A stretch of 64,000 nucleotides of DNA, taken from IMG/VR virus record IMGVR_UViG_3300027413_000007, positions 4,180 to 68,179 of that record; one strand, 5' to 3'. The position numbers were made by a program, and so were the translations under genes. How positions within the stretch are numbered: the first letter of the stretch is position 1; each line of letters begins with the position of its first letter. Positions 6,001 to 44,523 of the stretch are shown in pieces. The DNA comes from a virus. The notes under the pieces are model-generated. The model did not search any database and was not told where the DNA came from. It was given only the letters and a program-made list of their open reading frames with translations.

Positions 6001-9000
6001 ACAGTACATGCTCTATCAGTAAATAAATTAAATGTATTTGCATCAACTGCCTGAACAAAATATATATTATCGGCTGTACTATTATAATTAAAACTACTAG
6101 AAGTTCCAGAAGTACTATCAGTCTCAACATTAACAAATTTAATAGCTAATCCGCTGCCTGGGCCACCTGCAGTAGCCATCGAACCGGGGGCTGCAAGTTT
6201 ATGACCACCGGATGAAGTTACTGTTAAACCATTCCAGAGATTATTTGCTGTTACACTTCCATTTCCACTAGTTGCGTCAATATTAATAGTAAATCCATCG
6301 GGAAATGTAGAAACTGGAGTTGTAAATGCTGTGTGTGTAACAACAACAATAGGTTCCGTGCCTTTAATAAAATCTTTAATATTAACATTACCAATATAAA
6401 GTGTAGCACCACTATCAATATTTACATCACCATGAATATCAAGAGTATAATTCGGATTAAATCCAGAAACATATTTTGCAGCATTATTATGAGGTGTTTT
6501 CGCAGTTTTACCAATCATAATATTAGTATTGTTTAAACCCTTGTTTACAAGGTTACTATCAAGAATACTAGTACCAGCATCGTTAAATGTCTCTGGCTTC
6601 ATAATTACGATGCCATTACTTAATCCGGTTGGAATAAATGTATTACCACCAATAAATATAGTATTATCAGCAGTACCACCTACTGCAGTTCCACCATACT
6701 GCGCATTTACTCCAGCTGTGTGTGAATCTTTCCAACCCGCACCAATTACAATATTATCAGCATTAGTATTATTAATAAAACTATTATCTTTACCGAATAT
6801 TAAATTATTTTCAACACCAGTACCATCTAATTTATTATCTTTACCAATTAGATAATTGTTATCTCCAGCATTATCAAGTATATTACCGTCACCAATAGCA
6901 AATGATTTATTAGTAGCACCAGTTGATGTATTAGCTAATCCAAATTTATTACCAATACCAAATGCGTAAAGTTTAGTTCCAGTACTACTTGAGTCTTGCA
7001 CGTTACCTTCACCAAGGAACATGTTTTGATCTGTTATAATTTGGTTATCTTTACCAATTGCGACACTATACTTACCTTGACTAGTAAGACCGTATGTAGA
7101 ACCTCTAAGAAGAATATCTCCTTTAGAAGTCCTTTGTCCAACTTTATTTTTTGAACCTAAAGATATAGAAGAAAACCCTCTCGCATATGGTTCTTGACCC
7201 ATACCTATAGAAGTAATACCTAAATCAGAATTTTGATGTTCAGCAAGTAAAATTTCACCAGCTCTAATAAGTCCAGCTCTTGAGCTGTACATAAACATAT
7301 TGTCATATTCATTACCAGGAAATACTCCAGCAGAATCGAATATTGCTGAATCAGTAGCAGAATAAGTTAAAGCTTTTAAACCATCAACTTGGAAATCACC
7401 ACGAACATCAAATTCTGTATTTGGTGTTGTTTTTTGTACACCAATATTTCTTGGTGTTTCTTGAATAATAAACGTTCCGTTATCAACAAACGCATTACCT
7501 GCAATAGGGGCTCCACCTTCTGGATTCCACTGCGCAAATGTGCCGCCGTAAAGAATATCACCGCCAACAAATAAATTACCAGCTCCATCAATAGCCGCAA
7601 ACATATCTGATTCTCTACCAATCGATACGTTACCACCTTGAATAGCCATGAGGTTATCATCTACAACAATACCTGGTAATGTTCTATTTGGATTATTAAG
7701 TAAATCAGCGCCTGCTCCATATGTAGGAGTAGTAGTGACCATTTGAAAATTTATGCTTTTATTAGCAGTATTAGCAATATGACCATTCATACCAAATGCG
7801 TAAGAAGATTGTCCTGAGACTATATTTTCTCTGCCAAACGCAAACGCATCACCTCCACCAACTTTATTATAAGAACCAATTGCAAACGATAAAGCACCAC
7901 CAACAGAATCTTCCACGCCAAAAGCATAACCAGCATTACTTTGAGCTCTGTTGTTTTGTCCTATTAAAAAATTAAAATTGCCGCCAGCCGATTTATTGTC
8001 AAGACCAATAAATACCTGTTGGAAACCGCCATTTGATACCACATTATTTTTACCTAAAATAAAGGTATCATCACCCATTGCAGTGTTTCCTGCGCCAAGT
8101 AAAATATTTCTATCACCGCCATCAGAATTGCTTGCTCCAATACCAACAGAATATAAACCAGTTATTTTATTTTTGAAACCCATAGCAATTGAACTAATAC
8201 CGCCAGCTTGGCTACTATCACCAGTTGCAAAACTACCTTGACCAGATGCTTTAACATTTCTACCAAAAGCCGCTGAAAATTGACCTAAAGCACCCCAAGC
8301 AAAATCATTATGGTTTGTAAAGTATCCACCGCGCGTTGATGCTTTTCCTGGAACAAACGAAAATCTAGATCCTTTATCTGAATCAGCAAGAGCGCTTAGT
8401 GTTGGATCACCGTAATTAATTACAAGATCATTTGCCATAGAAATCTCGCCAGAGACTTTATCATTATAGCTAGCATCAAAAGTTTGACTACTTCCTGCTA
8501 AAGGACCCTTTACTTGAAATGGCCCGCCATGAACTTCAAACCTAGATTTAGGTTTATCTGTACCAACCGCAATTCTACCAAATCCACCATATGGATAAGT
8601 TGCTGAAAAATCTCTTGGAGCAAAATACGCATCATCTATAGCTGTAGCTGTAAATAATCCGCCGCCTGTAAATGGAACACCATTTTGTAAAAGTTCGCCA
8701 GTAAAGTTAATACTACCATCTTTATGAACTTCGAATAAAGAACTATCTTCAAGTGATATAGCTCTTATTAAAACTGAAACGTCTGAATCATTAGCACTAG
8801 TACCATCACCTGGAAATCTTCTAAGATCTCTTCCACTGTCTTTATGTAAATCACTTTTAAAATAGTTAATAGGTAAAGTAGAAGTTAATGAATATTTACG
8901 CCCCGCAAATTCGGTTGAGTCGCCATTAGTAGTTACTGTTAAACCATAAAATTCTCTAGCTTGAGCAGAATCTGGATAATATATTGAATTTGGATCAATT

Positions 9001-11591: not shown

Positions 11592-12158
11592 CTAATTATT
11601 ACTAAGAAATATATCAACTGGAACAGCTAATCTAAGATTAGCCTGATAAGTTTTTACCAAATGATATACATATCCAGGCATGATTATTACATCACCGGTA
11701 TGAGGAGTATATTCGATAGGGTTAAACATTTCAGCTGTTTTTCCGAAATATCCTCGATTAGCATTTACTCTTGGATCATATGCTACTAATTCTCCGCCCT
11801 TATCTATTTCATCAGCAAGTACATAAAACACTGCAGCAAACTGAGCTCCTGAATGATTATGAATATTCATAGAGTATCCCTTTTGAGATCCTGTTAACCA
11901 TGAACTAAAACTATGAGATATATCATTTAAATTACTATCAAATACTTCTTTAAAAAATTCCGTATATTTTTCTATAGCCAAATCTTTTAACAATGGAATT
12001 TTATCTGTGAGCGAACCACTATCGTATTCAGCTTGTGGTTTCATAATACTTGCATTAAGTAAAATCTCTTGAACTAATTCTTCGCATTGATTTAAAGTAA
12101 TTTGAGTTTTAAATATTGGAGTTGACCAACAATCATTAATACCCAATTTCAACATCAT
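11592..12158 (-). CDS. 2OG-Fe(II) oxygenase-like protein (TIGR02466-like)
   Basis: HNHSG...VFYV...GGEL..YDPR...PG...HLV...R motif pattern. Confidence 0.8.
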   Translation of the reverse strand: MMLKLGINDCWSTPIFKTQITLNQCEELVQEILLNASIMKPQAEYDSGSLTDKIPLLKDLAIEKYTEFFKEVFDSNLNDISHSFSSWLTGSQKGYSMNIHNHSGAQFAAVFYVLADEIDKGGELVAYDPRVNANRGYFGKTAEMFNPIEYTPHTGDVIIMPGYVYHLVKTYQANLRLAVPVDIFLSNN

Positions 12159-12540
12159 AATATCCTTTTATATCACTAACCATGCCATGAATTATCATCA
12201 ATGGCCAATCTATATTGTTAAGTATTCTATCGTATATTTCTTTACTACTATCATATGTTTGAAAATACGGATCGTTTCCAGCTAAAAGCATTGGATCATT
12301 TAATAGATCATAAAAGTCTTCGTTAAAATCTTTACTAATCCAATGTGCATAACATATTGCTACAGCATAACTTTTAGCTGGATATAGCCATTCATCTACT
12401 TTCTCATTAAAATGTCGAATAGCATTTTTAATAATGACTTCTTGATTATCATCAAAAACTATTTTTACTTTATTTAAATCGTCTGTATGGTCTTTATTTA
12501 GCCGATGATATACTTCTTGTTTAACTTGCCATTCTTTCAT
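12136..12540 (-). CDS. Hypothetical protein of the radical-SAM cassette
   Basis: 134-aa ORF overlapping both neighbours; motifs YPAKSY and LLAGNDPYF. Confidence 0.75.
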   Translation of the reverse strand: MKEWQVKQEVYHRLNKDHTDDLNKVKIVFDDNQEVIIKNAIRHFNEKVDEWLYPAKSYAVAICYAHWISKDFNEDFYDLLNDPMLLAGNDPYFQTYDSSKEIYDRILNNIDWPLMIIHGMVSDIKGYYDVEIGY

Positions 12541-13429
12541 GATACCAATCCAATAATCCTCTATATCCGTTACAGCTATTATCTAAATCTTTGACATATC
12601 GATAATGCTCTGTTAAGCAGTTTCCAAAGTACGTGCAGGACGCACATATAGGACTTATCATTTCTTCTTTTTCTTTATTTGTCCAATCAATGTATTGTTC
12701 CCAAGAATCCAATTCAAGAAAGAATTCTTTATCTTCTTCATCAAATTCCAAGACACCAAACTTGCCATTAGGTGTGATATATACGTGATCATCTGAAAAT
12801 GCATTATATCTTCCTTTCGTTGATTCTATAATTCTATCTTCATTTACAAATTCAAACTTCATAGTATCTTTTAACTTAAGCCACTTTATAACAAAATCTT
12901 CAAAGTCTTTGTGCGTCACATTATGGGCATTTGCTTGATTAATTGAATATGGTTTAATCTCAACAGACGTAATTGACGAACACATATTTAACATGTTAAT
13001 CATTTCAGATACATCTTTTTCTAGCACCTTTGGAGATGCTAAAACTAAAACCGCAATAGGTACTGTACTCATTAACATATTTTGAAACACAAGTTCAGAC
13101 TTTTCTCTTGCTTCAAAATCATATGATACAGAAAGATACACATCATCATCAAAGAAACCTGGATGCATCATAGAATAATTTGTGTTGATGCTAATTTCAC
13201 CTGAATAATATTTTCTTATAACATCTTTAATGCCATAAAAATACGACTTTTTCATTGCACCAACTTCACCACCATATAGGTCAATATGTTCTATATCTGG
13301 TACTTGAGATAGCAACTCATCTAATTTATCAAATGAAATTTGTTTTTGATCTCCAAGTTGCTTAGTAGATAGGTAACAAAAATCACATCTAAAATTACAA
13401 AAATATGAAGGATTAATCGATACGATCAT
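12521..13429 (-). CDS. Radical SAM enzyme with Cys-rich (SPASM/twitch-like) C-terminus
   Basis: CNFRCDFC (CX3CX2C), YGGE, C-terminal CASCTYFGNC...CNG. Confidence 0.9.
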   Translation of the reverse strand: MIVSINPSYFCNFRCDFCYLSTKQLGDQKQISFDKLDELLSQVPDIEHIDLYGGEVGAMKKSYFYGIKDVIRKYYSGEISINTNYSMMHPGFFDDDVYLSVSYDFEAREKSELVFQNMLMSTVPIAVLVLASPKVLEKDVSEMINMLNMCSSITSVEIKPYSINQANAHNVTHKDFEDFVIKWLKLKDTMKFEFVNEDRIIESTKGRYNAFSDDHVYITPNGKFGVLEFDEEDKEFFLELDSWEQYIDWTNKEKEEMISPICASCTYFGNCLTEHYRYVKDLDNSCNGYRGLLDWYHERMAS

Positions 13430-14040
13430 TACCTGTACGGAAAGGAAATATTCATTACTACTGCAAGTCTATCTTCTTCACCATAATAAGGAGTTACTTC
13501 ATGCCATACATGAGCTGGAACAATAATTATTGTATTTTTTTCAGTCTCAATAGACATTTTAGATTTAGGTCTTGTTTTTATAACCTGATTAAATGCTGGG
13601 TCATGAAAAATTAATTTGCCGCCATCTTTGTCATTATCTACACAGTCTAAATAATAAACCGCGACCATTGAAGCACCACTATGACAATGTAAACCTTTAT
13701 AATCGCCATTTCTCATAAAAGGCAATCTTCCAGTGGTCTGTTCCATACGTTCTAAAATTTCGGCATGTGTAATTGATTCATCATATTCATTAGCTAGTTT
13801 TAAAAATGACTTTGCAAAAAAATCGTGTAAATTTTTGATTTCATTATAATTTTTAATATTATCATCAGTAAACAATGGAATGTGCACACCATCATCTCCA
13901 CCATCTTGATATGAAAGACCTGCCATAGCTAAATGATTTCTAAATATTGCCTGACATACCGAATTAAGTGTACTACTTTCTTCTTCATTAATATTATGTA
14001 ACTCATGTAACATTTTTATTGGAAAAATAGTTTTTATCAT
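13429..14040 (-). CDS. 2OG-Fe(II) oxygenase-like protein (TIGR02466-like)
   Basis: HCHSG...VYYL...GGKLIFHDP...PAHVWHEV...R. Confidence 0.8.
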   Translation of the reverse strand: MIKTIFPIKMLHELHNINEEESSTLNSVCQAIFRNHLAMAGLSYQDGGDDGVHIPLFTDDNIKNYNEIKNLHDFFAKSFLKLANEYDESITHAEILERMEQTTGRLPFMRNGDYKGLHCHSGASMVAVYYLDCVDNDKDGGKLIFHDPAFNQVIKTRPKSKMSIETEKNTIIIVPAHVWHEVTPYYGEEDRLAVVMNISFPYR

Positions 14041-15071
14041 GCGTATTCCCTCTCATACGGCGTCAACTGTCTATTGATGCTATTTATACTGATTATATCA
14101 GATGCTAAAGTTTTCATATGCTCACAATGATCTTCTACCATATTATGTTGTTTTAAATCTTTAATAGTTTTTTTACATCCATTACAAATTTCAAACATAG
14201 GGCAAGTATAGCACGCATTTTTCAAACTCATTAAATTTAAATCTGTCGCAAGCGGTGTTGAGAATCCACCATTCATTTCGTAATCAAAATCAATAGCCTT
14301 ATCTAAATCATCACCAAACGCACCACAGGAATAGTAGTCACCTTCAGGCTGAAGCGTTCGAATACCAGAATCACATGTTCTTGATTGAGGGCATATAGTA
14401 GATTCTCCTCTCAATCGTACCATCATTTGCTGAGTATTATGTTCCCAATCGCTTAAACCAGCTTTCCATATTTCGACATAACGTTCATATATTTTTGATA
14501 ATTGATATGGAGCTGATTGTGATCCTGATGCCATTGCATAATTCACTTTACATATTACATCCATCTTCTTTGCGAGTTCAACGGTTTTAATATGAGTATC
14601 TTCGTTCTCTTCAACGATTACAGCTATGAAGGATGGTCTATATCCAACATGTTCTAACATCGCATCTGAACATCTCCAGAAATCTTCTTCTGTAAACTCA
14701 CTATAATCGCCCTTTAATCTTCCACCACCATATTGAAATGACGTAGCCACACCTACCCTCGGATGGTTGAATAGTTCTTTCCATTTTAGTGGCTTGGTAA
14801 GAAACGGGTATAAATTTGTTGTAAGTGATATAGACGCTGGCATATCATGCTTATCAAGAAACTCTATAATTTTCCAATAATAATTTGGCTTCATCATTAA
14901 TGGATCACCACCATTAACAATAATTGTTTGTGTATCTGGAAAACGTTTTAAAAACTTAAATATCTTATTTAAATCAAGAGTGGCTGTATTATCTTCGAAC
15001 GTAATTTTAGATGATGAACAAAACGAACATTTGAAATTACATAGTTCGGTTGGTTTAACAATTAAGTCCAT
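14037..15071 (-). CDS. Radical SAM/SPASM enzyme
   Basis: KPTELCNFKCSFC, GGDPL, C-terminal CPQSRTC...YSCG...CYTCPMFEICNGC...C. Confidence 0.92.
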   Translation of the reverse strand: MDLIVKPTELCNFKCSFCSSSKITFEDNTATLDLNKIFKFLKRFPDTQTIIVNGGDPLMMKPNYYWKIIEFLDKHDMPASISLTTNLYPFLTKPLKWKELFNHPRVGVATSFQYGGGRLKGDYSEFTEEDFWRCSDAMLEHVGYRPSFIAVIVEENEDTHIKTVELAKKMDVICKVNYAMASGSQSAPYQLSKIYERYVEIWKAGLSDWEHNTQQMMVRLRGESTICPQSRTCDSGIRTLQPEGDYYSCGAFGDDLDKAIDFDYEMNGGFSTPLATDLNLMSLKNACYTCPMFEICNGCKKTIKDLKQHNMVEDHCEHMKTLASDIISINSINRQLTPYEREYA

Positions 15072-15607
15072 GGAGAATCGCTAACATTAAACCCAAAATT
15101 CATAGTGATTCTGTGCATATCAGGATCTCTAAAGTGTTCAACTCTGTGTTCAAACTGTTTATCTTGGCTTCCTACTACCACATCATATTTTTGAGGTAAA
15201 TGAAATGCCGTGATTCTATTATTTTGTGATATATTCCTAAACATAATCTCGCCGCCAGCATCATTATCCATATCAGTAAAATATAGAAGAAACATTATAT
15301 TTGCGCCTTCACAAAAATCATTATGCCAATGACATGAAGTTTGTTCGGTGCCATTCCAACAATGATAATAAATCAAATCTTGTTTTTCTGAATATGGTTT
15401 TAAATAATGATTAAAAAGATAATCAGCAGTCATTAGCATTTTCTTTCGCATACCCAATATATAATAATTTAAAGGAAATCGATAATCTTTTCTATTACCA
15501 ATACCTCTAAGCCATTTTATATTAGGAATAGTATTTTCTAAATATTGAAACGCTAAGACGTTATTTTCTGTATAAAACCCATCATCCATTTTCCAACCAT
15601 TTTTCAC
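15062..15607 (-). CDS. 2OG-Fe(II) oxygenase (prolyl-hydroxylase-like)
   Basis: WHND (HxD)...GGE...HRV...RIT facial-triad pattern. Confidence 0.8.
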   Translation of the reverse strand: MKNGWKMDDGFYTENNVLAFQYLENTIPNIKWLRGIGNRKDYRFPLNYYILGMRKKMLMTADYLFNHYLKPYSEKQDLIYYHCWNGTEQTSCHWHNDFCEGANIMFLLYFTDMDNDAGGEIMFRNISQNNRITAFHLPQKYDVVVGSQDKQFEHRVEHFRDPDMHRITMNFGFNVSDSPWT

Positions 15608-16749
15608 AGCATTTTTACCTTTTGTCTAAAACCATATGACAGATCATCTTCACCATCACGTTTTGGTTTAAATCCCTTTGTTTTTTTAACATAATTAAAC
15701 GTTTCTTTAAAAACACATTCTTCCATATCATTGTGATCACCTGGCATATCCGCTTTTACAAAACATGTAAATGGACAGTTTTCATAATATTCGCACTCAA
15801 AACAATTATATTTTTTTAAAAACTTTTCTACTATCTCTCCTGTTTCAAAAGGTGTTTCACCAGTTTTTTTATCTCGTTGATACGCTACACCACAACATCC
15901 ACCAGGCGAAGAACCGTCAGGCTGAATAGTTATTGAATTACCTCTTGTACACATCATTGCACCAGTCTGATTCAACGGATCATGAAACGCGTCCATGTTT
16001 TCGCATTCAGGATAGTTATCTATCAAATATTTATTGAATGCTAATAACTCGCTATCTTTAGGAATTAATTTTGCATCTGTTTTAATCAGTGGCGATGGCA
16101 TATAAGCATCAAAATCAACCGGAAAGTTTTTATACAAATAATCAAAAGTGCTTTTATCATTGCTCTTTATAATCGTCTGTACATTTTGGCTAGTAGTAAC
16201 AATTGAAACATTTCTAATATAATCCTTAAAAGTCTCTACATTCTCTAAGAATATTTCCTGTTGACCTTTATTGAAACGTCCTCTTGGATCATAAGATGTT
16301 GAAAGTTTTATATCGTGTTTTTTACAAAAGTCCATGACTTTACTAGAGTTCTTTTTATCAAACATAAAATTAGTAAGATAATTGAAATAAATTCTTTTGT
16401 CACCAATGTTAATCTTGGATCTGACTAAATCCATAAATTCGTCATATACGTCTAAAAAGCCTTTTTCAATCCATAGATCTTCAAATAATTCTCCACCTAA
16501 TAAATGTAATTTATAGTCTTTTGATCTTGGTGAATTGTTAATGAATTTAGCAACAGTATCGCTTTTTGCTAAAATTTCTTCTCGAGTAGCTCCGACCATT
16601 GAGTTATGATCTTGTGGACAGAATACACATTTTAAATTACAATGTTCAAAGAATATTATAACAAGCTCACTTGATCGAGTGATCTTGCTTCCTAAAATTT
16701 TGTATATATCAAAATCAAGTGGAGCTGGATTAATAGGTGCTATAGACAT
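15604..16749 (-). CDS. Radical SAM/SPASM-like enzyme
   Basis: CNLKCVFC, GGELF, C-terminal CTRG...GGCC...CFECEYYENCPFTC...C. Confidence 0.9.
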   Translation of the reverse strand: MSIAPINPAPLDFDIYKILGSKITRSSELVIIFFEHCNLKCVFCPQDHNSMVGATREEILAKSDTVAKFINNSPRSKDYKLHLLGGELFEDLWIEKGFLDVYDEFMDLVRSKINIGDKRIYFNYLTNFMFDKKNSSKVMDFCKKHDIKLSTSYDPRGRFNKGQQEIFLENVETFKDYIRNVSIVTTSQNVQTIIKSNDKSTFDYLYKNFPVDFDAYMPSPLIKTDAKLIPKDSELLAFNKYLIDNYPECENMDAFHDPLNQTGAMMCTRGNSITIQPDGSSPGGCCGVAYQRDKKTGETPFETGEIVEKFLKKYNCFECEYYENCPFTCFVKADMPGDHNDMEECVFKETFNYVKKTKGFKPKRDGEDDLSYGFRQKVKML

Positions 16750-18410
16750 TCTTTACTTACCTCTGACATAATTATATGTCTATTTTTTTCTATAAATTTA
16801 TTTATAGTATTTGCTCTAAACTCTTGATTTAAAACTTTAATGCTTTTTGGTTGAGAATTTGGATTAAATATATCTCTTATTTCAGAATATATATCATCCC
16901 AACTATCTAATTTACTTATAGCTTCATATGCTTTTTTAGTAAAGACAGACGGTGATACACTATTTTCAAGCATAGGATAAAAGTGTTGCAATAAATAATT
17001 TCCAGCACTATTCATAAACCACATTTCATGCATTTCTTCAATTGTAAACGAAAAGCACGATGATATAGTTTTAAAATATGATTTCTTATTTTTGTATAAA
17101 TTATTCCAACTATCTATTCCTTGTTCATCTGCAATATCAGTGTAAACTTCAACTGTTCGAATATCATATTTAATTTTATATTCCTGAGAATTAAGAGCTG
17201 AATCAGGAAGAAACATATAATCGTGTCTGTAAGAACCAAACGATTTGAAATTCCAGATATATTCCATTTCATTATAAAAATCATCTATCGTAGAACCCGG
17301 CATTGCAAGTATCATTTCTAAATTAGGTATTGGAAACCCATGCTTTGAACATTGTTCATTAATGTGTTTGCTTAATTCCAATTTATCTTCTGTATTTAAA
17401 TCAACTCTTTCAGCTATTTTCATTGCAATGTCAGAACTGCTTTGAATAGATACCGATGGAACTATTGATATATTAGCCATCTCACTCCACATGTTTTTCC
17501 CGTTTTTCATATTTGGAGAAGCATAATTTGTTCCAACAATTTCAAAATACTTATCAATCAATTTTTTTCTTCTACTTAAATCTTTAGATTTCATAGTAGA
17601 AATATCGGTTAAATTAAAACCGTTTGTCCAAGCATATTCAAAAATTTCAAAGTCTCTTTCAAAAAAAGCTCCAAAGTTTGCATCATTTAAATATGCAGAT
17701 CTATAACCGGCTTTCAACATAGCAGTAATATCACGTTTCACTATATCTAATGATTTCTTATAAATCTTTGTATTAATGCCACCACCCCATTCACAAAATA
17801 CACACTTATAAGGACAGCCTCTCGTTGTCTCTAAAACAATAAATGGTTCCATTTTATACTTGCGGGCATACTCAAGTAATTTTGTAAGATATTCTAAATG
17901 ATCTTCGTATACCGAATAGTCTTCTTTTGATATATCATGTATGACTTTTACGTCTGACCTTAATTCCCATGGAATACTTGTTGGATCGATTTTGTTTTCA
18001 ATAAACTGATCTATAAGTTCAGCCATAAATGGTTCACCTGGTTTAGTAGGTCTACAAATTAAATCATACTGAGGACGAGAGGCTAATAGTTCAGGTTCAT
18101 TAGTTCCTATATGTGGACCACCCAAAACCAATATTTTTTCTGGATATTCATTTTTAATTTTATTAGAAATTTCATCACATATCATATAATTCCAAGTATA
18201 TGAAGAAAACATAATTACATCTGCTGCAATTATTTCATCTACTACTTCATTATACGATTTATAGCTATTCCATTTATATGGTGATTCTAACCATTGCACT
18301 TTTTCGCTATATTTTCCATACCGTGCATAATAACTTTGCATCAATAAAAATGTAAAATTATTTGCTAATGACCAGTCAGCGTGAGGAGGATTGACAAATG
18401 ATATAATCAT
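16740..18410 (-). CDS. Cobalamin-binding (class B-like) radical SAM enzyme
   Basis: N-terminal Rossmann-like FSSYTWN...LVLGGPH, then ETTRGCPYKCVFCEWG, DANFG, LAMPGST. Confidence 0.88.
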   Translation of the reverse strand: MIISFVNPPHADWSLANNFTFLLMQSYYARYGKYSEKVQWLESPYKWNSYKSYNEVVDEIIAADVIMFSSYTWNYMICDEISNKIKNEYPEKILVLGGPHIGTNEPELLASRPQYDLICRPTKPGEPFMAELIDQFIENKIDPTSIPWELRSDVKVIHDISKEDYSVYEDHLEYLTKLLEYARKYKMEPFIVLETTRGCPYKCVFCEWGGGINTKIYKKSLDIVKRDITAMLKAGYRSAYLNDANFGAFFERDFEIFEYAWTNGFNLTDISTMKSKDLSRRKKLIDKYFEIVGTNYASPNMKNGKNMWSEMANISIVPSVSIQSSSDIAMKIAERVDLNTEDKLELSKHINEQCSKHGFPIPNLEMILAMPGSTIDDFYNEMEYIWNFKSFGSYRHDYMFLPDSALNSQEYKIKYDIRTVEVYTDIADEQGIDSWNNLYKNKKSYFKTISSCFSFTIEEMHEMWFMNSAGNYLLQHFYPMLENSVSPSVFTKKAYEAISKLDSWDDIYSEIRDIFNPNSQPKSIKVLNQEFRANTINKFIEKNRHIIMSEVSKECL

Positions 18411-18443: not shown

Positions 18444-19574
18444 TTAGACTGTCACATATTTAGCAATAACAGTTTTATCAGAAATAGAGTTAGCGTGTAG
18501 CAGTGAATGAACTAAATAATGATTTACTGTTTCAAGCTCTAAAGCAAAGAATTTTTCAGGTTCTTTGTCATATGATGATTCAATTAAGATAAGTCTATCC
18601 AACAACTCATCTGTTAATTCAGTAGTAATTGCTGGTAAGAATTCTAATATGCTATCATCTCTTAAAGTAAAATCAGACCATTGACTTTCTATAATAGCTA
18701 CAAACTCTTTAATAGTATTGAGATCTGAATCAGAAATGTTTTCAAATATTATATTATCACTACTAGAAGCACCACTTAAATATTTTATCGACCACATATC
18801 ATCTTTAATAAACACTTGAGCAAATTTAGAAGTATCTGTAAAAATGTCATTAATATTATTTAATGTATAAGTTTTGTCTAAACTTAATTTATCAGCAAAA
18901 GGTTTAGTTAAGAAATGTTGGAAAAATACTTCTTTTAATTCGTAAAGATATTGTTCAAACACCTTTTTCAGCAAAGGTCTGACTGCGCTTTTTAACTCGG
19001 CTTTTGAAGATTTGTTATTGAGATAATTTGCTAGTAGATGTTCAACACTTATTGTATTTTTATATTTTGTCATAAAAGCTTTTTTCTTAGCTGCAGATGG
19101 AGCTTTAACGCTGTCATAAATGGTCTTGAAATTTTCTACTTTTAAAATTTCACCAGCTCCTAATTTTGCGTTGTTGCTTGAAAATCTGCCTCTAAAAAAT
19201 GTATTGAATTTAAAAGCATGTGCTCTTACTAATGATTCGACTGAATCAGCTGTAGGAGTTTTTAAAATAAATTTATACCACGTAGACATAATAAATTGCA
19301 ATGCTGCATTGTCACAATAAACGACGATTCTTTTATTTGTAGCATCACATTTAGTAGCTAATTGATCAAAAAGAGTTGAAGCATCTTTAAACGTTTTATC
19401 TTTTCCTAAAATATCATCCCATTCAAGTCCATATGCGATAAGTTGACCAGATAAGATTTTTTGGAGATCTTCTAAAAGATTAAAACCGTTATTCTGCGAT
19501 ACAACAATACGATCAAATTTTGGATCGATGATATTATCTGTTGTTACATAAATTTTCTTAAACAGATGTATCAT
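18444..19574 (-). CDS. Hypothetical protein of the radical-SAM cassette
   Basis: 376-aa ORF, start overlaps the upstream stop; no recognised catalytic motif. Confidence 0.75.
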   Translation of the reverse strand: MIHLFKKIYVTTDNIIDPKFDRIVVSQNNGFNLLEDLQKILSGQLIAYGLEWDDILGKDKTFKDASTLFDQLATKCDATNKRIVVYCDNAALQFIMSTWYKFILKTPTADSVESLVRAHAFKFNTFFRGRFSSNNAKLGAGEILKVENFKTIYDSVKAPSAAKKKAFMTKYKNTISVEHLLANYLNNKSSKAELKSAVRPLLKKVFEQYLYELKEVFFQHFLTKPFADKLSLDKTYTLNNINDIFTDTSKFAQVFIKDDMWSIKYLSGASSSDNIIFENISDSDLNTIKEFVAIIESQWSDFTLRDDSILEFLPAITTELTDELLDRLILIESSYDKEPEKFFALELETVNHYLVHSLLHANSISDKTVIAKYVTV

Positions 19575-20218
19575 AACTGTTCTCCTGTGGCGATTGCGCT
19601 TGTTAGTAAAAACATTGGGTTATTAACATTTGCCCAATAGCTAAATAAATTATTTCCTTTAAACATATACTCATTAAAGTATGATTTATAATATGTTTTA
19701 TGATGTTCAATTACATTAGCATAAAACAGATAGAATCTTTCATGCTTAAGTAAGCTTACAAAATTTATTCCGGTCAAATCTTTGGTATCATCTTTTGGAA
19801 ATGCTTTGACATAATCTTTTAATTCATCTGATTCAACAGTATAAAGATTATATAATGAAAGAGAATCTAATTTTTTAGTCCACGTTGTAAGTATATCAAC
19901 ATTATCATCTATAAAGTTTTTTTCTGTTAGCTCTACTATACCTTTCATTTGAAGTAACAAATTAATTACTCTTTCTTCAAGAGTTGGTACATTTATAATA
20001 AAATTAGCTAAAAGATATTCTTTAGTCATATGATCAAAGTCTTCTTGACTATCAAATCCAATATCACACGGCAGTTCTAAATTGCTAAGATACGTTAATA
20101 GCTTTGTTCCTTGTAATTGAGAATTTTGGTAATCAACCATATAAAAAGTTTGATCATCTTCAAAATACAATTTTAGATCTTCAATACTGAACGGCGCAGT
20201 AACATCAATAACTTTCAT
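19571..20218 (-). CDS. Hypothetical protein of the radical-SAM cassette
   Basis: 215-aa acidic ORF, ATGA-coupled to the CHSS-repeat gene. Confidence 0.75.
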   Translation of the reverse strand: MKVIDVTAPFSIEDLKLYFEDDQTFYMVDYQNSQLQGTKLLTYLSNLELPCDIGFDSQEDFDHMTKEYLLANFIINVPTLEERVINLLLQMKGIVELTEKNFIDDNVDILTTWTKKLDSLSLYNLYTVESDELKDYVKAFPKDDTKDLTGINFVSLLKHERFYLFYANVIEHHKTYYKSYFNEYMFKGNNLFSYWANVNNPMFLLTSAIATGEQL

Positions 20219-20778
20219 CGTCTTCCTCGCGAACCATGACAGCTGCTATGACAACTGCTGTGACAAATATTAATAGTTACAGTAATAGTATTAGATACTA
20301 ACGAATTAAATCTTGTTTGTAAATCAGTAAATTTAGCTTCTAATCCAGTAGCAGTAATTTGTGTTCCAGATGATAACGTAACACCAGCTGCAGATAAAGA
20401 TTGCACATAACTACTGCTTAGATAAGCTTTTTGTGTTTGATTAAAAATTAAGCCTGGGGTTTGGTATGTACCTATATTACTTGTTTCACCTGTTACGTTT
20501 CGCCTTGCATTTAAATTTCTAATTTGACTATATGCCGCGGTTTCATTTTCAATTGCGGTATTAATAGTAGCAGCATTAATTGGATTTCCGGCTATAGTAG
20601 ATCCGCTAATTCCAATGCTTCTCCCAGCAGTCGTTCCACCAAAATAGCTTGTAGAAAATCCACTGAACGGAACAGAGTTGGTACCCCAAACAATCCCAGA
20701 ATTTGCACTTGCTGGAGCAAAATCCGCAAATCTATCTATTATATTCTGTGCTGTAATTGGACTTGTTAATGTAGCCAT
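20215..20778 (-). CDS. Virion-like protein with C-terminal (CHxS)3-RGRR tail; putative substrate/precursor of the cassette
   Basis: S/T/G/A/N-rich body with G..I.A repeats; the only three Cys and three His residues are in the tail ICHSSCHSSCHGSRGRR. Confidence 0.75.
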   Translation of the reverse strand: MATLTSPITAQNIIDRFADFAPASANSGIVWGTNSVPFSGFSTSYFGGTTAGRSIGISGSTIAGNPINAATINTAIENETAAYSQIRNLNARRNVTGETSNIGTYQTPGLIFNQTQKAYLSSSYVQSLSAAGVTLSSGTQITATGLEAKFTDLQTRFNSLVSNTITVTINICHSSCHSSCHGSRGRR

Positions 20779-20804: not shown

Positions 20805-20812
20805 TATTTATA
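20805..20812 (-). promoter_or_regulatory. Late promoter TATAAATA for the CHSS-repeat gene
   Basis: Exact match overlapping the stop of 20808..21827, 26 nt upstream of the ATG at 20778. Confidence 0.7.
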
Positions 20813-21827
20813 CATGTTTTGCTAGTTCTATCATTAAACTTTTAGGAGCTCCGCAAATATCGCCATCCCATCCTAGTTGATGACAATCTCCTCCGCAAAA
20901 TCTAGAAACAGGACATTCTAAACAAAGAGGATTTCTCATTTTTTCTTCTAATATAGTTCTTATTCTTTTAGGACTTTTTAGTAATATATCGATAGAATCA
21001 TCTAGACTTCCAAAGGCTTGTTCAGGAGCGCTATTTGGACATCCTGCGATAGTTCCATCACCATTTATTGTAAATAGTTTTTGCTCACAATCTCTACAAA
21101 ATGTTCCGCATGTAGTCATAGTCTTTTCAAACTTAGCATAGACATTTTCTAAAAAGTCATTTTCAAACCAATCTCGTGCTCCATGCTCTTCACTTTGAAT
21201 ATGCATTTTTAAAAAATATGAATCGAGTTCTGCATTGCTTGGAAAGATTTCTGATGCTTTTCTTGCACTACCATTATTAGTTAATCTTTCAAGAGAAACT
21301 TCTTGAACACCTAATCTCCTACACCATCTTAATAGCGTTATAGGATCTTTAGCAAGAGTATCTTTAGTGAGACTAATAAACAGGCGAATAGTTACTCCTT
21401 CAGCAAGCAATGTTTTTACATTTTTATGCCAAAGATTATATTGGGTATTATTTTCAAATCGTATCTTACGATCCCAAGATGTACCTAATCTATTACCGAG
21501 CGGCCCTTTAATAAATTCTTTATGTTCATCTTTTAATTTAAATACTAGATTAGTTGTTGCACCCCAAGACATCTGATCCCATAGACCATCGCATGCGTCG
21601 TATACCTTTCGCATTTGGCCAACCGGTACAAGAAACGGTTCACCACCATGAAATTCCATATGTATAGAATCTTGTGTTGCAGGTTTTTCTTTTCTAAATC
21701 TATGAATCCAGTCAACTAGCTTATCAGTATTCCAATAAATCTTTTGACCGCTTCTTCCGCTCGTAAAACAATGCGCACAATTAAGCTGACATGTTTCTGT
21801 TGTTTTGAGATACATCAGCCAGTTCAT
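20808..21827 (-). CDS. Radical SAM/SPASM enzyme
   Basis: CQLNCAHC, FHGGEP, SPASM-like CRDC...GCP...CLECPVSRFCGGDC...C. Confidence 0.92.
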   Translation of the reverse strand: MNWLMYLKTTETCQLNCAHCFTSGRSGQKIYWNTDKLVDWIHRFRKEKPATQDSIHMEFHGGEPFLVPVGQMRKVYDACDGLWDQMSWGATTNLVFKLKDEHKEFIKGPLGNRLGTSWDRKIRFENNTQYNLWHKNVKTLLAEGVTIRLFISLTKDTLAKDPITLLRWCRRLGVQEVSLERLTNNGSARKASEIFPSNAELDSYFLKMHIQSEEHGARDWFENDFLENVYAKFEKTMTTCGTFCRDCEQKLFTINGDGTIAGCPNSAPEQAFGSLDDSIDILLKSPKRIRTILEEKMRNPLCLECPVSRFCGGDCHQLGWDGDICGAPKSLMIELAKHV

Positions 21828-22308
21828 TATTAATTTTATCCTCTGTATAATTTTCTAAACCAAAGCTCAGTGTCAATGCTTCATCTTTATTTAATGCTTG
21901 ATGAGGAGTATTGGCTGGTATATGTATATATTCTCCTGGACTAATAGTCACTGGCTTATCATTAATTATTAAAGACTTAGATCCTTCACAACAATATATA
22001 ATAACATCATCTGGGTCGGTATGCATATCAAAAGAATAAGACCCAGCCACCGCAAAAAATAAATGACACGTAACGTGTGGTTTATGTTCCCAATCAGTTT
22101 TTACTTTCCAGCAATATTCGTATATTGCTGAATTAAAATTTTCCATACGTTCAATTTTTATAGAATGGTTTTGTTTTTGTGCTTTGCACAAATCACTAAA
22201 GCTAGTAATTAGTTGTTCACGACCCTGTTCATCTATAGCATAAACCATGTTTTGTTCATACATATGATTTGCAGTAAGTGCAGATATGAGTTGAGATTTA
22301 TTAATCAT
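21781..22308 (-). CDS. JmjC/cupin (ROX/YcfD-like) 2OG oxygenase
   Basis: SFDMHTDPDDV...EGSK...PGEYIHIPANTPHQA...LSFG. Confidence 0.8.
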   Translation of the reverse strand: MINKSQLISALTANHMYEQNMVYAIDEQGREQLITSFSDLCKAQKQNHSIKIERMENFNSAIYEYCWKVKTDWEHKPHVTCHLFFAVAGSYSFDMHTDPDDVIIYCCEGSKSLIINDKPVTISPGEYIHIPANTPHQALNKDEALTLSFGLENYTEDKINNELADVSQNNRNMSA

Positions 22309-22350: not shown

Positions 22351-24123
22351 TTACACTTTTAATACACATTCTATTAATTTTTCTTCAACTGCAGTAGACG
22401 ATTCTAAAGCAATACCTATTATTCCGGTCATACCACCGGTTGCAAAGCCATTAAACTCTTTACCTGCGCATCCATTATGGTGAGCATATACAGGATCACC
22501 TTTATTAACAGCTCCAACTATTCTAACTGGAACACGTCCCTTAAGAGCAAGTGCTTGTCCATCTATATCTGCGTTCATTAAATATGCGGGATCAGCTGAA
22601 ACCACACCCATTGGAATTCCATTTGCAGTACATGCTACTGTTTCTTCAGTTTCGTTTGATGATATCATCATTACTGTTCCAACTGGATGCTCTTCGCTTG
22701 TAGTATATTTTTCTGCAAGGTCAGCATAATTTGCAGACGTTGCATTACCAGCAAAAGTTCCTGCGGTCAATGTATGTGATGATGGATTATATAGTAAATG
22801 ATCGTTATCTGTATCAATATATGGTCGCTGGTAACCTGCGCCGTTATTATCACTAAACAATATTTGATAATTTACGTCATCATTTTTTTCATCTACATTA
22901 ATATTATCGGCATTAGTAGCCAGTGTTACATCACCACTCGCAAGAGTAACTACTCCAGCATTAGTAATTGTAGCATCTCCACTTAACGTGGCCGCAGTAA
23001 AACCAGAGCCATTACCAATTAAAATTTGTGCATCTCCTACAGCAACATCTGATGGTACACCTCCAGTAGCTGCATTTCTAACTTTAATTGTACTAGCTGC
23101 CATATTACTTAGTTTTGCATTTGTTACATTACCATCTAATATTTTAACAGTAGTGACGGCATTATCTGCAATTTGTCCAGTTGCTACTTGAGCTGCTACC
23201 ACATCACCAGCAACTCTTCCAACTACCGTATTTACTGGCACAGCAAAACTTACGAGATCTCCTGCAGCTCGAGCAACAACACTATTAGTAGAAATCGATA
23301 AGTCATCAATATTTGCAGTACCTACTTTTGCAAGAAGAGTGTTATCACCTAATGCTAAGTCAGTTGGATTTTCAGCGCCTGCCGTAGCATTTACCTTAAC
23401 TGTATTAGCTGCCATATTGTTTAGTTTTGCATTCGTCACCACATCTGGTTGGATTGTAACAACACCAGCATTTGTCATAAGAACATCTTGAGATAAAGCA
23501 GCAGATGTAAAACCAGTTCCATCACCAATTAAAATTTGCTCATCAACAACAGCTTTATTTGACGATGCTCCAGCTGTATTTGCATCTCTTACTTTAACTG
23601 TATTTGCTGGCATATCTTCTAACATAAGACCATCAGCTTCTTGAGTTAATCCATGACCACCTGCAACATTAAATACACCAGATGAATCATCTATAGTAGA
23701 TTTACTTATACCAAGTCCTGCAGCGTAATTTGTAGTCGGAGGAATAGCCCAAGTAAATGTTCCATCTCCATCAGATCTTAAAAACTGATATTGAACACCT
23801 CCACTAAGGAGAGAATATCCGCCCATACCGTTAACAGCTAAGTGATGAGAAGTAATAACATCTGAATCAATATTACGGCCAGAGATCGCATGCGTATCTA
23901 TATGATATTCTTTAAGTTGGTTTGAATCTATCCATGCCATATCATGTAAGTGGTTCATCGCTGATACATAACTAGAATCATGACCAGTAAAACCAGGAGA
24001 TCCTGTTTGGCCACTACCGGTAGTCAGCGCATCTAAGTCTCCTCCTTGTTCACCAATGAGGTTGGTCTTCTGTCTCCAACTATTAATTGTATCAGTTAGA
24101 TTTACGATTACCTGTCTAGCCAT
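22351..24123 (-). CDS. Tail fibre/spike with C-terminal intramolecular chaperone (peptidase G2-like)
   Basis: N-terminal TDTINSWRQKTN, internal VTNAKL..MAANTVK repeats, C-terminal YADLAEKY...ALKGRVPV...GIALE. Confidence 0.8.
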   Translation of the reverse strand: MARQVIVNLTDTINSWRQKTNLIGEQGGDLDALTTGSGQTGSPGFTGHDSSYVSAMNHLHDMAWIDSNQLKEYHIDTHAISGRNIDSDVITSHHLAVNGMGGYSLLSGGVQYQFLRSDGDGTFTWAIPPTTNYAAGLGISKSTIDDSSGVFNVAGGHGLTQEADGLMLEDMPANTVKVRDANTAGASSNKAVVDEQILIGDGTGFTSAALSQDVLMTNAGVVTIQPDVVTNAKLNNMAANTVKVNATAGAENPTDLALGDNTLLAKVGTANIDDLSISTNSVVARAAGDLVSFAVPVNTVVGRVAGDVVAAQVATGQIADNAVTTVKILDGNVTNAKLSNMAASTIKVRNAATGGVPSDVAVGDAQILIGNGSGFTAATLSGDATITNAGVVTLASGDVTLATNADNINVDEKNDDVNYQILFSDNNGAGYQRPYIDTDNDHLLYNPSSHTLTAGTFAGNATSANYADLAEKYTTSEEHPVGTVMMISSNETEETVACTANGIPMGVVSADPAYLMNADIDGQALALKGRVPVRIVGAVNKGDPVYAHHNGCAGKEFNGFATGGMTGIIGIALESSTAVEEKLIECVLKV

Positions 24124-24348: not shown

Positions 24349-27300
24349 TTAAACTCCTAACGCTATAACTCTTAAATCTTTAACTGTAGGAACCTTTGAA
24401 CTGTTATTAGCAAAAAATACAATTTTAATTTGGAATGTAGTAAAGGCTGGAATAGACCCTCCAACGCCGCCAATTAAATAGCGATATTCTTTATAAGAAT
24501 AGATATTATCTGAAGTAGAAACAGGTGCTTCAAGTTCAGCTATTGTCCAGTCAATATCAGTTAGTATTGTATCTTCTGTACCAGTTTTATAATATACATC
24601 AAATAACGAGCCTGTAGGTCTGTTACCAGCTAATAAAACTTTTAATCCTACTGCAGTATTTGTTAATGTCACTGGCTTTGTAATATGTTTAGCAAGAGCA
24701 CTTCCACTAAACGGAGTAGTTTCTGCAGCATAATCAAAGATCACATTATGACCAGAAGTAGCTGATGCTGCTGGTCTATCTATTTCATTTTTAGTAAGTA
24801 CTAATGAACATCTTTGCAAATCAATAATAGGCGAAACAAAAGAGCTAGTTGTACTCATTGAGAGTCTTAAAGAACCAGTATTAACTCCACCTAATCCGCC
24901 AGCACCTGTTGCAGTATCTTCTTTTACTGCATTTGCTACCATTATCGGAGTCTCAAAATAATTTTTCTGATTAAGCGCAATATCGGTATATCCTCCTGCT
25001 GGCGCAACATATGGAGTTTCTAACGCAACATTCGAATATCCGGAATACAAGCTTGCTTTTGGAATTATACTTGTATTAGGAGGATCAAGAGTTTGAACAA
25101 TAGGATATAAAGTATTTCCTTGAATATTTTTAGTTGCAAATATTTCACTTCCACCGCCTTGAGCTGCTGAAGTCGCTGATCCTGCAGCTAATGTAATTTT
25201 ATAGCCTGTAGGATCAATATGGGTTATTGTATGAGTAGTGTTAAGTTGAGAAGCTGTAACGCCTCCAACCGCAGTTGCTCCAGTAATAGCAACTTTATCT
25301 CCAACAAATAAATTATGATTCTTATGGAAAACTCTTATTGAAGTTGGAGCTGAAGTATTTGTTAAAATAGGATTAAGACCTAATTGAGCAAGTGGTAAAT
25401 CTGCTGTATTAAGTTGAGCAACTGCTTGTATATTAGTAGCAAAATCAGCTCTATATAATGTAAATTTCATATCCTGTTCTTGAGAAGCTTCCCAAGTTGT
25501 ACTGTTTTGTGACTTAAAGAAAGATCCTAAGAATGGCTGTTTTGTAATTCTTCTTGAAGTAGATCCTAATTCCCAGTCACCCATAAATGATGTCCATAAT
25601 AAATAATCTGTATTGTCGCATATACAAACAATTGCGTATTCTGTTCTACCAGATAAGTAGATTGGTTCATCAAAGGTAAATGTTGTTGAAAGACTTGCGT
25701 CATTAGAAATTGCAACATCACCAGGTGCTAAATATTTTCTAGATCCTGGTACAATTGTATTTGATGCTGGATAACCATTTACAAGAGGTCTTAATTCAAT
25801 CCATACTGGTAGCGTAGCATGTTTTGTTTTAAAATATAAATCAACTTTAGTTACAAATATACCTTCGTCTTGAGGAACACGAAACGATTGCGCTAAAGGA
25901 TCAGGGGCCTCGCTCCGATCGATCCGTGGCACAGGTTGCAATCTAGATCCAGTTACTACTCTACTAGTACTTGAAACTCTATTTCCAACTACTGTAAGAT
26001 GTCGAGTAGATAATATTTCTTCTTGCCAAGTCTGTAGAGCACCTGAAGCGTTATATGATGCTACTGCTCGTGATCCTGGCAAACCACCGTTGTTCGCTGT
26101 TTCTGTAACGTCAAGTAACATAAAATTAGCGTTACCAGTTCTAAATTTAGTTGTACTATTATTAGGAATAAAAAAAGATCCTGCGACACTACCCTTTGCA
26201 TCTGTAAGTAATGCGCCACTTCCATCTGGATGTGTTGTAAAATTATTTGGCGATTCATATTCAACTCTTGAGGAATTAATTCTATCAAAGTTTCCAGTAC
26301 TTCTAACAAAATCATCCATTTTAACGTTATTTAAGTATGCAAAATGATATGCATTTGGCCGCAACCCAATAGCTTCAAAACTAACTTTTCTACTTCTCAT
26401 GAATGGTATAACTGCTACATCAATAATTTTAGAACCCAAAGAAGTTCGAATAGTTTCAGAAGCCACTACTCTATTTACAATTGAACTTGTAGTTTGGTCA
26501 AATCCCCAAACTGTTAATCTTCCACTGGTCTGAGAGAATGCTCGACTAGATGTCGTTGTAGCTGATGCTACTGTAGTTTCATCCCCTACTTCCATTCCTT
26601 CAATGTCGTTACCTAACCAACCCCACTCTGATTGATCAAAAAGAAGCGCTTGATTGAGATTTAATCTTGTTCCACCGTCAATCACTTTTGCAGCAGCAAT
26701 TTGATCAACTTTCCATTCATCTGACTGAGGAGATAACGTCATTGATCCACTATAAATGGAAATCATATATGGATTAACATTTTCTGTACGTGATACAACT
26801 GATTGTGTAATATATGCAACTTCAGTATGTTTAATATAAATGTTATCTCCTTTTAAAACGGTGTCTGGTGTATCTACTCCGCTTACAGTCCTCGAAGAAG
26901 AAGTTGCTGCATCGTAAATAAGCCCTACATTATATTCAGTAAAAGGTGGATGTAAAGTCATAGTTTTTGGATCAATAGAAGCTTTATATTCAACTGAATT
27001 AACATTAGCGTGAAAAAGATCTTTAAAATTATCTACAAGAAATCCAGATTTAGTTCTATTATTACCTGAAGCATCAATAACTTCCAACGCATTAGTATCT
27101 AGTTCTAATAAACTAAGAGCTACAGTTTCTTCTAATAAATCTACTCGCTTATCGATTTTACCAATATCTTTCATGGTATAACCTTTATTTTCAATAAATT
27201 TAACGACCATGTCAGAAGGAGAAATTGTACCACCGTTAAGTGACGATCTATATAATTCTAAAGATTTAGGTGGTTGAGATGGTAATACTGGATTATCTGC

Positions 27301-44487: not shown

Positions 44488-44523
44488 TATAAATAAAGCT
44501 AAATTCTACTAGTTATATTTATA
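44488..44523. promoter_or_regulatory. Face-to-face pair of late promoters serving the divergent genes
   Basis: TATAAATA on + at 44488-95 (toward gp4) and on - at 44516-23 (toward gp48). Confidence 0.7.

Follow-up and report, generated by a model that had tools for sequence, protein, structure and literature searches.

Radical S-adenosylmethionine (radical SAM) enzymes with a SPASM domain, such as those of the PapB type, install the thioether links of ranthipeptides and sactipeptides, and anaerobic sulfatase-maturating enzymes (anSME) act at the target site C-x-[PA]-x-R. Among T4-like phages, gp37, gp12 and gp38 represent the metal-binding fibre tips and tip adhesins; we know of no T4-like fibre system that needs radical SAM enzymes. 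The gene described here lies in a 64,000-nucleotide stretch of virus DNA (IMG/VR record IMGVR_UViG_3300027413_000007, positions 4,180 to 68,179; hereafter the window) and encodes a 187-residue protein, called the tail protein, that ends in a tag of three Cys-His-x-Ser repeats and Arg-Gly-Arg-Arg, within a cassette of radical SAM and oxygenase-like genes. The nearest characterised analogue is the HXS antiphage system, which comprises HxsA, HxsB, HxsC and HxsD (Li et al., Nat Commun 2026; PMC13128918). HxsA is reported to be a basic, DNA-binding protein with five HxS repeats, in which a radical SAM-dependent change of +8 Da is mapped to an S-H-R-S-S motif. As there, the window encodes a protein, rather than a short peptide, with repeated His-x-Ser units beside radical SAM enzymes and a small, probably non-catalytic partner, and basic residues adjoin the H-x-S units, as in the HxsA unit that bears the +8 Da change. 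Unlike in the HXS system, an invariant Cys precedes each unit, the units number three and sit at the extreme C-terminus, the genes belong to phages and Bdellovibrio-like predators and stand beside fibre genes rather than in a bacterial defence operon, and many more enzymes are present, including a B12-binding radical SAM enzyme, a JmjC-like protein and 2-oxoglutarate (2OG) oxygenases. No description of the tag or the cassette was found in the literature searched.

The gene and its terminal element occupy the following positions, the first taken from the open reading frame (ORF) listing of the window.

20215..20778, minus strand: tail protein gene, 187 aa, ATG start
20215..20265, minus strand: tag (C-H-x-S)x3-R-G-R-R with the stop codon, located by DNA pattern match and homologue alignment

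The translated protein ends in ...TINICHSSCHSSCHGSRGRR. All three Cys and all three His are confined to the terminal ...CHSSCHSSCHGSRGRR; a script count finds Cys at residues 172, 176 and 180, His at 173, 177 and 181, and neither anywhere else, in agreement with a first-pass annotation of this DNA, which had assigned every Cys and His to a period-4 C-terminal repeat. Cys recurs at every fourth residue of the tag, and the three H-x-S units (HSS, HSS and HGS) are each separated by the invariant Cys. The tag exceeds chance: scanned with a degenerate DNA pattern for (C-H-x-x)x3-R-x-R-R-stop, the window gives one match and 100 shuffles give none. The best reading is that a late protein associated with the fibres bears, at its C-terminus, a tag for modification on which the enzymes encoded next to it act, with both the modification and the virion location putative; we give this reading a probability of about 0.55. 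It is based on the occurrence of an identical tag on unrelated folded bodies, together with a 215-aa partner protein and SPASM-type radical SAM enzymes, across marine T4-like phages, jumbo phages and predators.

Conservation is concentrated in the tag. A word-seeded HMMER search with the 187-aa query yields 416 proteins at E ≤ 0.01 among 675 candidates, nearly all of them full length (186-201 aa). When the window protein is aligned with 34 of the 416 (48-90% identity), C172, H173, S175, C176, H177, C180, H181, R184, R186 and R187 are invariant in 35/35 rows, at a mean column identity of 56%. The same ten columns are the sole invariant ones in a wider alignment of 60 rows, 28 of which come from loci selected by the tag pattern. 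In PHROGs, phrog_35144 (unknown function) matches only residues 162-187, corresponding to the last 26 of 186 family positions. The tail protein belongs to no Pfam family and to no NCBIfam family (at E ≤ 0.01), and tblastn of it against phage isolates returns no match, which is probably explained by the BLAST low-complexity filter and divergent bodies. Across 121 distinct tag DNA strings, Cys is written as TGT and TGC, His as CAT and CAC, the conserved Ser as AGY and TCN, and Arg as AGR and CGN. Because synonymous codons vary freely at the tag positions, selection acts on the peptide, not on DNA or RNA. The earlier suggestion that function resides in the conserved tail is supported.

Positions left free by the search are also constrained. 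The pattern fixes C, H and R only; among 165 unique tails, the unfixed fourth place of repeats 1, 2 and 3 is Ser in 145, 131 and 141, respectively, and the unfixed position between the Args is Gly in 146. At position +2 after the Cys of the last repeat, Gly (73), Ser (42), Thr (23) and Ala (5) are found, and no Pro occurs among the six commonest residues listed for these 165 tails. Three tails (L035, L152 and L160) carry four C-H-x-x repeats instead of three; none carries five.

The bodies that precede the tag differ widely. A DNA pattern scan of IMG/VR places the tag on at least 119 viral contigs, and ORF calling on 121 loci yields 142 ORFs ending in the tag, with bodies of 124-364 aa. Long forms (about 170-260 aa) are found in 90 loci, and short forms (124-140 aa) come in tandem pairs, immediately behind a giant fibre-like gene, in 29 loci. 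With the tag removed, the long and short body types have no profile similarity (hhalign probability 5.6%). The short-type proteins share a conserved 'QLRTFDK'-like N-terminal motif (L003, L028, L037, L041, L056, L068, L079, L090 and others). Seven longer proteins of 374-533 aa are found with the last 40 residues as the query. Among the six long forms scanned, Pfam Gly_rich_2, a possible marker of receptor-binding adhesins, is over the cut-off in four, under it in one and absent from one; in two long forms, the glycine-rich domain precedes or interrupts the family body. Gly_rich_2 stands before the body or is inserted after the first helix and strand (P0123, P0125, P0126, P0128 and P0129), and the loop after residue 33 may therefore be a possible insertion site. 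A tblastn search with the long glycine-rich form P0129 against phage isolates gives one trivial match.

Rather than being unconserved or lying mainly in genomes that lack radical SAM neighbours, the tag is accompanied by a radical SAM-like ORF (at least 220 aa, with CxxxCxxC in the first 100 residues) within 6 kb in 95 of the 99 tail loci that have at least 3 kb of flank, which upholds the earlier claim that tag and radical SAM genes are tied. These loci hold one (37 loci), two (18), three (15), four (20), five (4) or six (1) such ORFs. The four exceptions are L021, with one phmmer radical SAM match; L032 and L080, whose flank lies on the fibre side only; and L113, whose contig bears five Radical_SAM matches, two of them over the cut-off. 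As controls, CxxxCxxC is found in 0/18 long window ORFs outside the cassette versus 4/7 inside it, and a radical SAM-like ORF stands beside one of seven chance matches of the pattern in genomes. In short-type loci with enough downstream sequence (e.g. L037, L068 and L090), four to six consecutive CxxxCxxC ORFs of 340-420 aa are seen.

The usual order of the cassette is a fibre-like gene, a cupin/JmjC-like oxygenase, a SPASM radical SAM enzyme, the tail gene, the 215-aa gene, a 376-aa gene, and further radical SAM enzymes and 2OG oxygenases. By iterated profile, the 215-aa family is present in 102 of 119 tail loci, including 21 of the 29 short-type loci, always on the same strand. Of 104 scored 215-aa ORFs, 92 are downstream of the tail gene and 12 overlap its end by more than 50 nt, as judged from called starts; in most of the loci without one, little sequence extends past the downstream end of the tail gene. 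The 376-aa family is found, likewise by iterated profile, in 67 of the 121 loci searched. A route independent of the tag, through homology of the 215-aa neighbour, leads to the same arrangement: tblastn with this protein finds 15 isolate records, all of them jumbo phages of Ralstonia, Burkholderia, Agrobacterium, Pseudomonas and Sinorhizobium. In all three that were opened, the ORF adjacent to a radical SAM gene ends in the same tag (...ICHTSCHTSCHSARGRR in pPa_SNUABM_DT01, ...VCHSSCHTSCHGSRGRR in RSL2 and ...FCHSSCHASCHNSRSRR in Atu_ph07). The annotated order in pPa_SNUABM_DT01 is cupin, radical SAM, tail protein, 215-aa homologue, a hypothetical protein and further radical SAM genes; RSL2 has an extra ORF between the tail protein and the 215-aa homologue, and in Atu_ph07 the ORFs carry no annotation beyond 'hypothetical'.

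The tag extends to bacterial genomes. In one-genome-per-species contigs, 47 stretches match the pattern, 39 with an ORF that ends in the tag, one of the 39 being a false match to a CH-dipeptide low-complexity stretch. Such a stretch in an actinomycete chromosome (L154) is a false positive of the pattern. The Bdellovibrio, Bacteriovorax, Halobacteriovorax or Pseudobdellovibrio groups account for 27 of the 47 matches, some on contigs of 1.3, 2.4 and 2.8 Mb, with the 215-aa and 376-aa families, radical SAM enzymes and a cupin as partners. In L143/G001 (L173:7765-9006 and neighbours), the cassette is flanked by serine dehydratase, Mrp/NUBPL-type ATPase and lytic transglycosylase genes and adjoins two 2OG oxygenases, with a 413-aa protein bearing a Peptidase_S74 fibre-chaperone domain close by; it looks chromosomal rather than part of a prophage. 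In L145/G002 (L175:6866-13933), which likewise has the whole cassette, a 2355-aa RCC1/Big_2 repeat protein is encoded after the tail gene and the 215-aa homologue. There are hints here of an adhesion module shared by phages and predators. The matches in Marinovum, Rickettsiales, Rhodobacteraceae and Methanobacteriota bins resemble the marine phage cassette and may be phage contigs assigned to those bins.

The AlphaFold2 model of the tail protein, built from the 60-row alignment, is a compact alpha/beta domain with a predicted local distance difference test score (pLDDT) of 84.3 and a predicted template-modelling score (pTM) of 0.78. It comprises helices at residues 10-26, 69-85 and 143-161 and strands at 29-32, 86-95, 109-120 and 164-171; from about residue 172, the tag is of low confidence and disordered in this monomer model. 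The body had been described as rich in Ser, Thr, Gly and Ala and as fibre-like: the richness stands, at 46.5% of the 187-aa protein, and the fibre-like character is contradicted by the compact predicted fold. Foldseek finds nothing in the PDB at E ≤ 0.001, and the wide VIA-align search reaches a best Z of 4.2, with no convincing solved relative; neither search lists a fibre or adhesin, which does not thereby exclude a fibre. Against BFVD, only uncharacterised viral proteins are matched, the top ones apparent family members, for example from Atu_ph07. The 215-aa protein is modelled with a pLDDT of 96.1 and a pTM of 0.91, with no Foldseek match in the PDB and a best VIA-align wide Z of 4.5 that is confined to the first 54 residues. 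Sequence searches of the PDB give chance-level rows only. The lack of solved relatives for the two models does not make either fold new. A control-free prediction of a complex of the tail protein with its 215-aa partner and the SPASM enzyme scores 0.02 against a mark of 0.32, which counts neither for nor against such a complex. The body had also been proposed as the leader of a precursor peptide; since it is confidently folded and is swapped for unrelated bodies in other lineages, it looks like cargo instead.

In the window, the cassette spans 11.0 to 22.3 kb entirely on the minus strand and contains five radical SAM and four oxygenase-like genes. Its members other than the tail gene are as follows.

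21781..22308, minus strand: cupin/JmjC-like Fe(II) oxygenase (above the Pfam cut-offs for Cupin_2, at 40.1 bits, and JmjC_2, at 31.7 bits)
20808..21827, minus strand: radical SAM enzyme of the SPASM type, immediately upstream of the tail gene (TIGR04085)
19571..20218, minus strand: 215-aa protein, family unknown; the tail gene's most constant partner (phrog_20767, E 2.3e-53)
18444..19574, minus strand: 376-aa protein of unknown family, a frequent partner (iterated profile)
16740..18410, minus strand: B12-binding radical SAM enzyme, methyltransferase-like (NCBIfam and Pfam)
15604..16749, minus strand: radical SAM enzyme (CxxxCxxC at residue 37; weak PapB and HxsB matches)
15062..15607, minus strand: 2OG-oxygenase-like protein (phrog_19592; PADLOC '2OG' model, E 1.9e-5)
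14037..15071, minus strand: radical SAM enzyme whose C-terminus resembles SPASM (above the Pfam Radical_SAM cut-off, at 37.6 bits)
13429..14040, minus strand: 2OG-Fe(II) oxygenase (phrog_81, E 1.8e-20)
12521..13429, minus strand: radical SAM enzyme (phrog_1802, E 1.4e-31; CxxxCxxC at residue 11)
11592..12158, minus strand: 2OG-Fe(II) oxygenase (phrog_81, E 4.8e-21)

The enzyme at 20808-21827 carries the SPASM domain of TIGR04085 at 32.8 bits, over the NCBIfam cut-off of 27, and has weak near-full-length matches to DynA, TIGR04083, PapB, anSME and the CbpB maturases, all far below the family cut-offs. Across the 43-row alignment of its family, CxxxCxxC (C13, C17 and C20), GGEP and eight C-terminal Cys are kept, and in the neighbouring cupin family the triad H96-x-D98...H136 is 100% conserved over 64 rows. 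The B12-binding enzyme reaches 84 bits with the NCBIfam KedN5 family, far below the cut-off of 700, and 30.4 and 25.6 bits with Pfam B12-binding and Radical_SAM, both just under cut-off. At 15604-16749, Pfam Fer4_12 scores 21.9 bits against a cut-off of 22; at 14037-15071, DynA (50.8 bits), anSME (37.8), HxsC (30.2) and SPASM (22) all stay under their NCBIfam cut-offs. With PADLOC, the cassette proteins give only generic N-terminal radical SAM matches (pVip) and the one 2OG model, and the tail protein gives none. No peptidase is recognised among the ten neighbours scanned with NCBIfam, Pfam, PHROGs and PADLOC.

The 215-aa family is large, with 711 representative clusters at E ≤ 0.001 among 1.84 billion representatives. 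Its conserved residues (P9, Y43, S33, N46, Y68, G150 and N152) are not catalytic-looking, and it keeps no set of Cys, His, Asp or Glu suggestive of metal handling. A match to 'TioA protein' in the ESM Atlas (0.77) lies below the level that shuffled proteins reach one third of the time and was not used. Several members (P0219, P0223, P0226, P0228, P0233, P0244 and P0247) are extended at the N-terminus by 130-340 residues that are acidic and seemingly disordered. For the 376-aa protein, no family is found in Pfam, NCBIfam, PHROGs or PADLOC, and the ESM Atlas offers no usable match.

Placed beside the characterised systems, the cassette resembles each of them in part. The first-pass annotation had pointed to the His-Xaa-Ser proteins: the lead stands in so far as a radical SAM-matured HxS protein has now been characterised (PMC13128918), and it fails at the level of families, where no Hxs model is reached. 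HxsB (TIGR03978) attains 30.9 and 23.6 bits against a cut-off of 370 and HxsC (TIGR03977) 30.2 against 267.9, and HxsD (TIGR03976) has no match among the ten neighbours scanned. TIGR03979, which we take to be the accession of the HxsA model, is likewise not reached, the 187-aa protein matching zero NCBIfam families at E ≤ 0.01. The tail protein also has no peptidoglycan-binding domain (zero Pfam families) and no N-terminal hydrophobic stretch, as read by eye without a signal-peptide tool. As in ranthipeptide and sactipeptide systems, a SPASM enzyme stands beside a putative substrate gene with regularly spaced Cys; PapB (NF047865) is aligned over residues 7-317 to model positions 7-318 of 330, yet at 36.7 bits against a cut-off of 340. 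Unlike those systems, the protein has 187 residues, is predicted to be folded and carries a C-terminal tag, with no short leader-plus-core precursor, and the acceptor residues would be Ser or His rather than Asp. The CXXX-repeat radical SAM system (TIGR04115) shares Cys at every fourth residue and a neighbouring radical SAM maturase; its maturase model aligns over residues 8-66 only, at 32.3 bits versus 350, and the tag differs in having only three repeats, invariant His and Ser, and a basic end. The anSME system (TIGR03942) offers a SPASM enzyme that acts on a whole protein, and the last repeat, C-H-x-S-R, has the same Cys/Arg spacing as its target site, but the score is 36.2 bits against 349, position +2 is mostly Gly, Ser or Thr, and no sulfatase domain is present. 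With the T4-like fibre tips, the tail protein shares a position beside fibre genes, variable and in some cases glycine-rich bodies, and a His-rich terminal motif. It differs from gp37-type tips in its compact alpha/beta predicted body and in lacking the HxH motif of gp37; the trimer with a nine-His/nine-Cys metal site and the virion anchoring put forward earlier are putative.

Genes for a fibre-like protein (590 aa), a structural protein (1751 aa) and a baseplate wedge protein stand upstream of the cassette, by which the window is recognised as the structural region of a T4-like myovirus. The first of these is the following.

22351..24123, minus strand: 590-aa fibre-like protein upstream of the cassette (C-terminal part: phrog_22593 and phrog_19602, 'tail fiber protein')

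In 53 of 119 tail loci, an upstream gene encodes a protein that has the C-terminal part of the 590-aa protein in common, and it is on the strand of the tail gene in 53/53. Giant minus-strand ORFs flank the cassette at 3-10739 (more than 3579 aa, running off the end of the window) and at 24349-29604 (1751 aa), and their products are candidates for what the enzymes might modify instead. The tail protein is putatively associated with the fibre or the virion, and its position in the fibre locus suggests a cargo that forms part of the machinery for attachment or entry.

Under the modification reading, the gene product would be a late-expressed protein of the tail-fibre locus whose folded body is the cargo. 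Its 16-residue end, (Cys-His-x-Ser)x3-Arg-Gly-Arg-Arg, would be recognised and covalently modified by a dedicated cassette made up of the 215-aa and 376-aa proteins, at least the upstream SPASM enzyme, the JmjC-like oxygenase, and the further radical SAM enzymes and 2OG oxygenases; the 215-aa protein encoded just downstream would most likely serve as a non-catalytic adaptor. The chemistry may be a radical cross-linking at Cys and/or His-x-Ser, giving thioether rings of the PapB/ranthipeptide type or an HxsA-type cross-link, with possible hydroxylation or methylation of Arg or His positions. The result would be a rigid knot at the C-terminus, rich in Cys and His, which might bind metal or fasten the protein to the fibre apparatus.

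Several observations weigh against this reading. Support for modification rests on co-location, and as the IMG/VR and genome loci were picked by the tag pattern, the invariance of C, H and R there is by construction. No single radical SAM orthologue is seen to be universal: a merged radical SAM profile reaches 12 of the 29 short-type loci only. In L090, three of the five CxxxCxxC ORFs have only sub-threshold Pfam radical SAM/Fer4_12 matches (E 0.003-0.04), and NCBIfam gives only sub-threshold NrdG-type matches, for one of the five. Five radical SAM and four oxygenase-like genes exceed the need of a 16-residue tag, so that other substrates, such as fibre proteins, are likely, and the tail protein could be a helper rather than a substrate. 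The Cys/His array at i, i+4 and i+8 also fits a plain metal-binding helix, in which both residues would line two adjacent faces. The main rival, which we regard as unlikely, draws on these last points and holds that the tag is an unmodified metal-binding or assembly motif, forming Cys3/His3 layers in an oligomer or a fibre clamp, and that the enzymes target giant fibres or other proteins, with the tail protein possibly a structural partner, a metallochaperone, or an electron or Fe-S helper. The shared fibre-like gene upstream in 53/119 loci accords with it, as do the metal sites established in phage fibre tips (T4 gp37 and gp12). It is harder to reconcile with the monomer model, in which the tag is predicted to be disordered rather than helical, and with the SPASM enzymes, which, judging by the matched family names, typically target Cys-bearing peptides or proteins. 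The 215-aa partner keeps no residue set for metal handling, and the conserved Ser in the fourth place of the repeats is no obvious metal ligand; it belongs to the HxS unit that is modified in HxsA (PMC13128918).

If the modified tag were instead cleaved and released as a small ribosomally synthesised and post-translationally modified peptide (RiPP) or as a cofactor, in the manner of pyrroloquinoline quinone (PQQ) or mycofactocin, the body would be a leader or scaffold. An invariant core with a variable remainder does resemble cofactor precursors, and several tailoring enzymes are clustered; but the bodies are large, confidently folded in AlphaFold2, diverse and in some cases extended by a glycine-rich domain, which argues for a function of their own, no peptidase is recognised among the ten neighbours scanned, and the conserved position downstream of fibre genes would have no obvious meaning for a diffusible product. 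Such a precursor is improbable. Least probable of all, with very little in its favour, is a phage counterpart of the HXS effector, that is, a basic HxS protein binding DNA in the envelope for superinfection exclusion or as a decoy against a host HXS system. Three H-x-S units with a basic R-G-R-R end beside radical SAM genes recall the basic, DNA-binding HxS repeats of HxsA (PMC13128918). Neither HxsA, HxsB, HxsC nor HxsD is matched at the family level, however, the tail protein has no PADLOC family, the peptidoglycan-binding domain (zero Pfam families) and the N-terminal hydrophobic stretch (by eye, without a signal-peptide tool) are both missing, and the links to fibre genes and Bdellovibrio-like chromosomes fit adhesion or entry better than exclusion.

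Radical SAM genes are frequent in large marine and jumbo phage genomes and have no known substrate there: 12 were counted in one T4-like genome (PMC5332604), and papers on marine T4-like and jumbo-phage genomes list radical SAM, cupin and 2OG genes without a substrate. The tag is a concrete candidate substrate, offered as a set of a 16-residue tag common to unrelated proteins, a constant 215-aa partner and defined enzymes. If it is modified, peptide-maturation chemistry would reach proteins of phage structural loci, phage fibres would be mechanistically tied to the invasion apparatus of predatory bacteria, and a portable pair of tag and enzyme would become available for protein engineering. 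The tag would then be a phage-side mirror of the HxS-repeat chemistry recently found in a bacterial antiphage system (PMC13128918). A wider proposal can be put forward only tentatively: tailed phages and Bdellovibrio-like predators may share a dedicated radical SAM/oxygenase pathway that builds a cross-linked, possibly metal-binding Cys/His knot on the C-terminus of interchangeable fibre-associated, adhesin-like proteins, which would amount to maturation, in the manner of a RiPP, of a protein that belongs to the virion or the invasion apparatus and is required for attachment to, or entry into, Gram-negative cells.

A promoter-like signal precedes the tail gene.

20805..20812, minus strand: T4-type late-promoter-like site TATAAATA, 26 nt upstream of the tail-gene ATG

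This sequence, which we take to be the T4 late-promoter consensus, overlaps the last codons of the radical SAM gene at 20808-21827. Its total in the window is not enriched (17 copies versus 14.25 expected), and 11 of the 17 copies lie 15-70 nt upstream of a same-strand start, versus 2.2% expected randomly. Elsewhere in the window, at 44488-44523, two copies of TATAAATA stand back to back on opposite strands, at a switch of transcription between the genes at 43349-44476 (minus strand) and 44533-45030 (plus strand).

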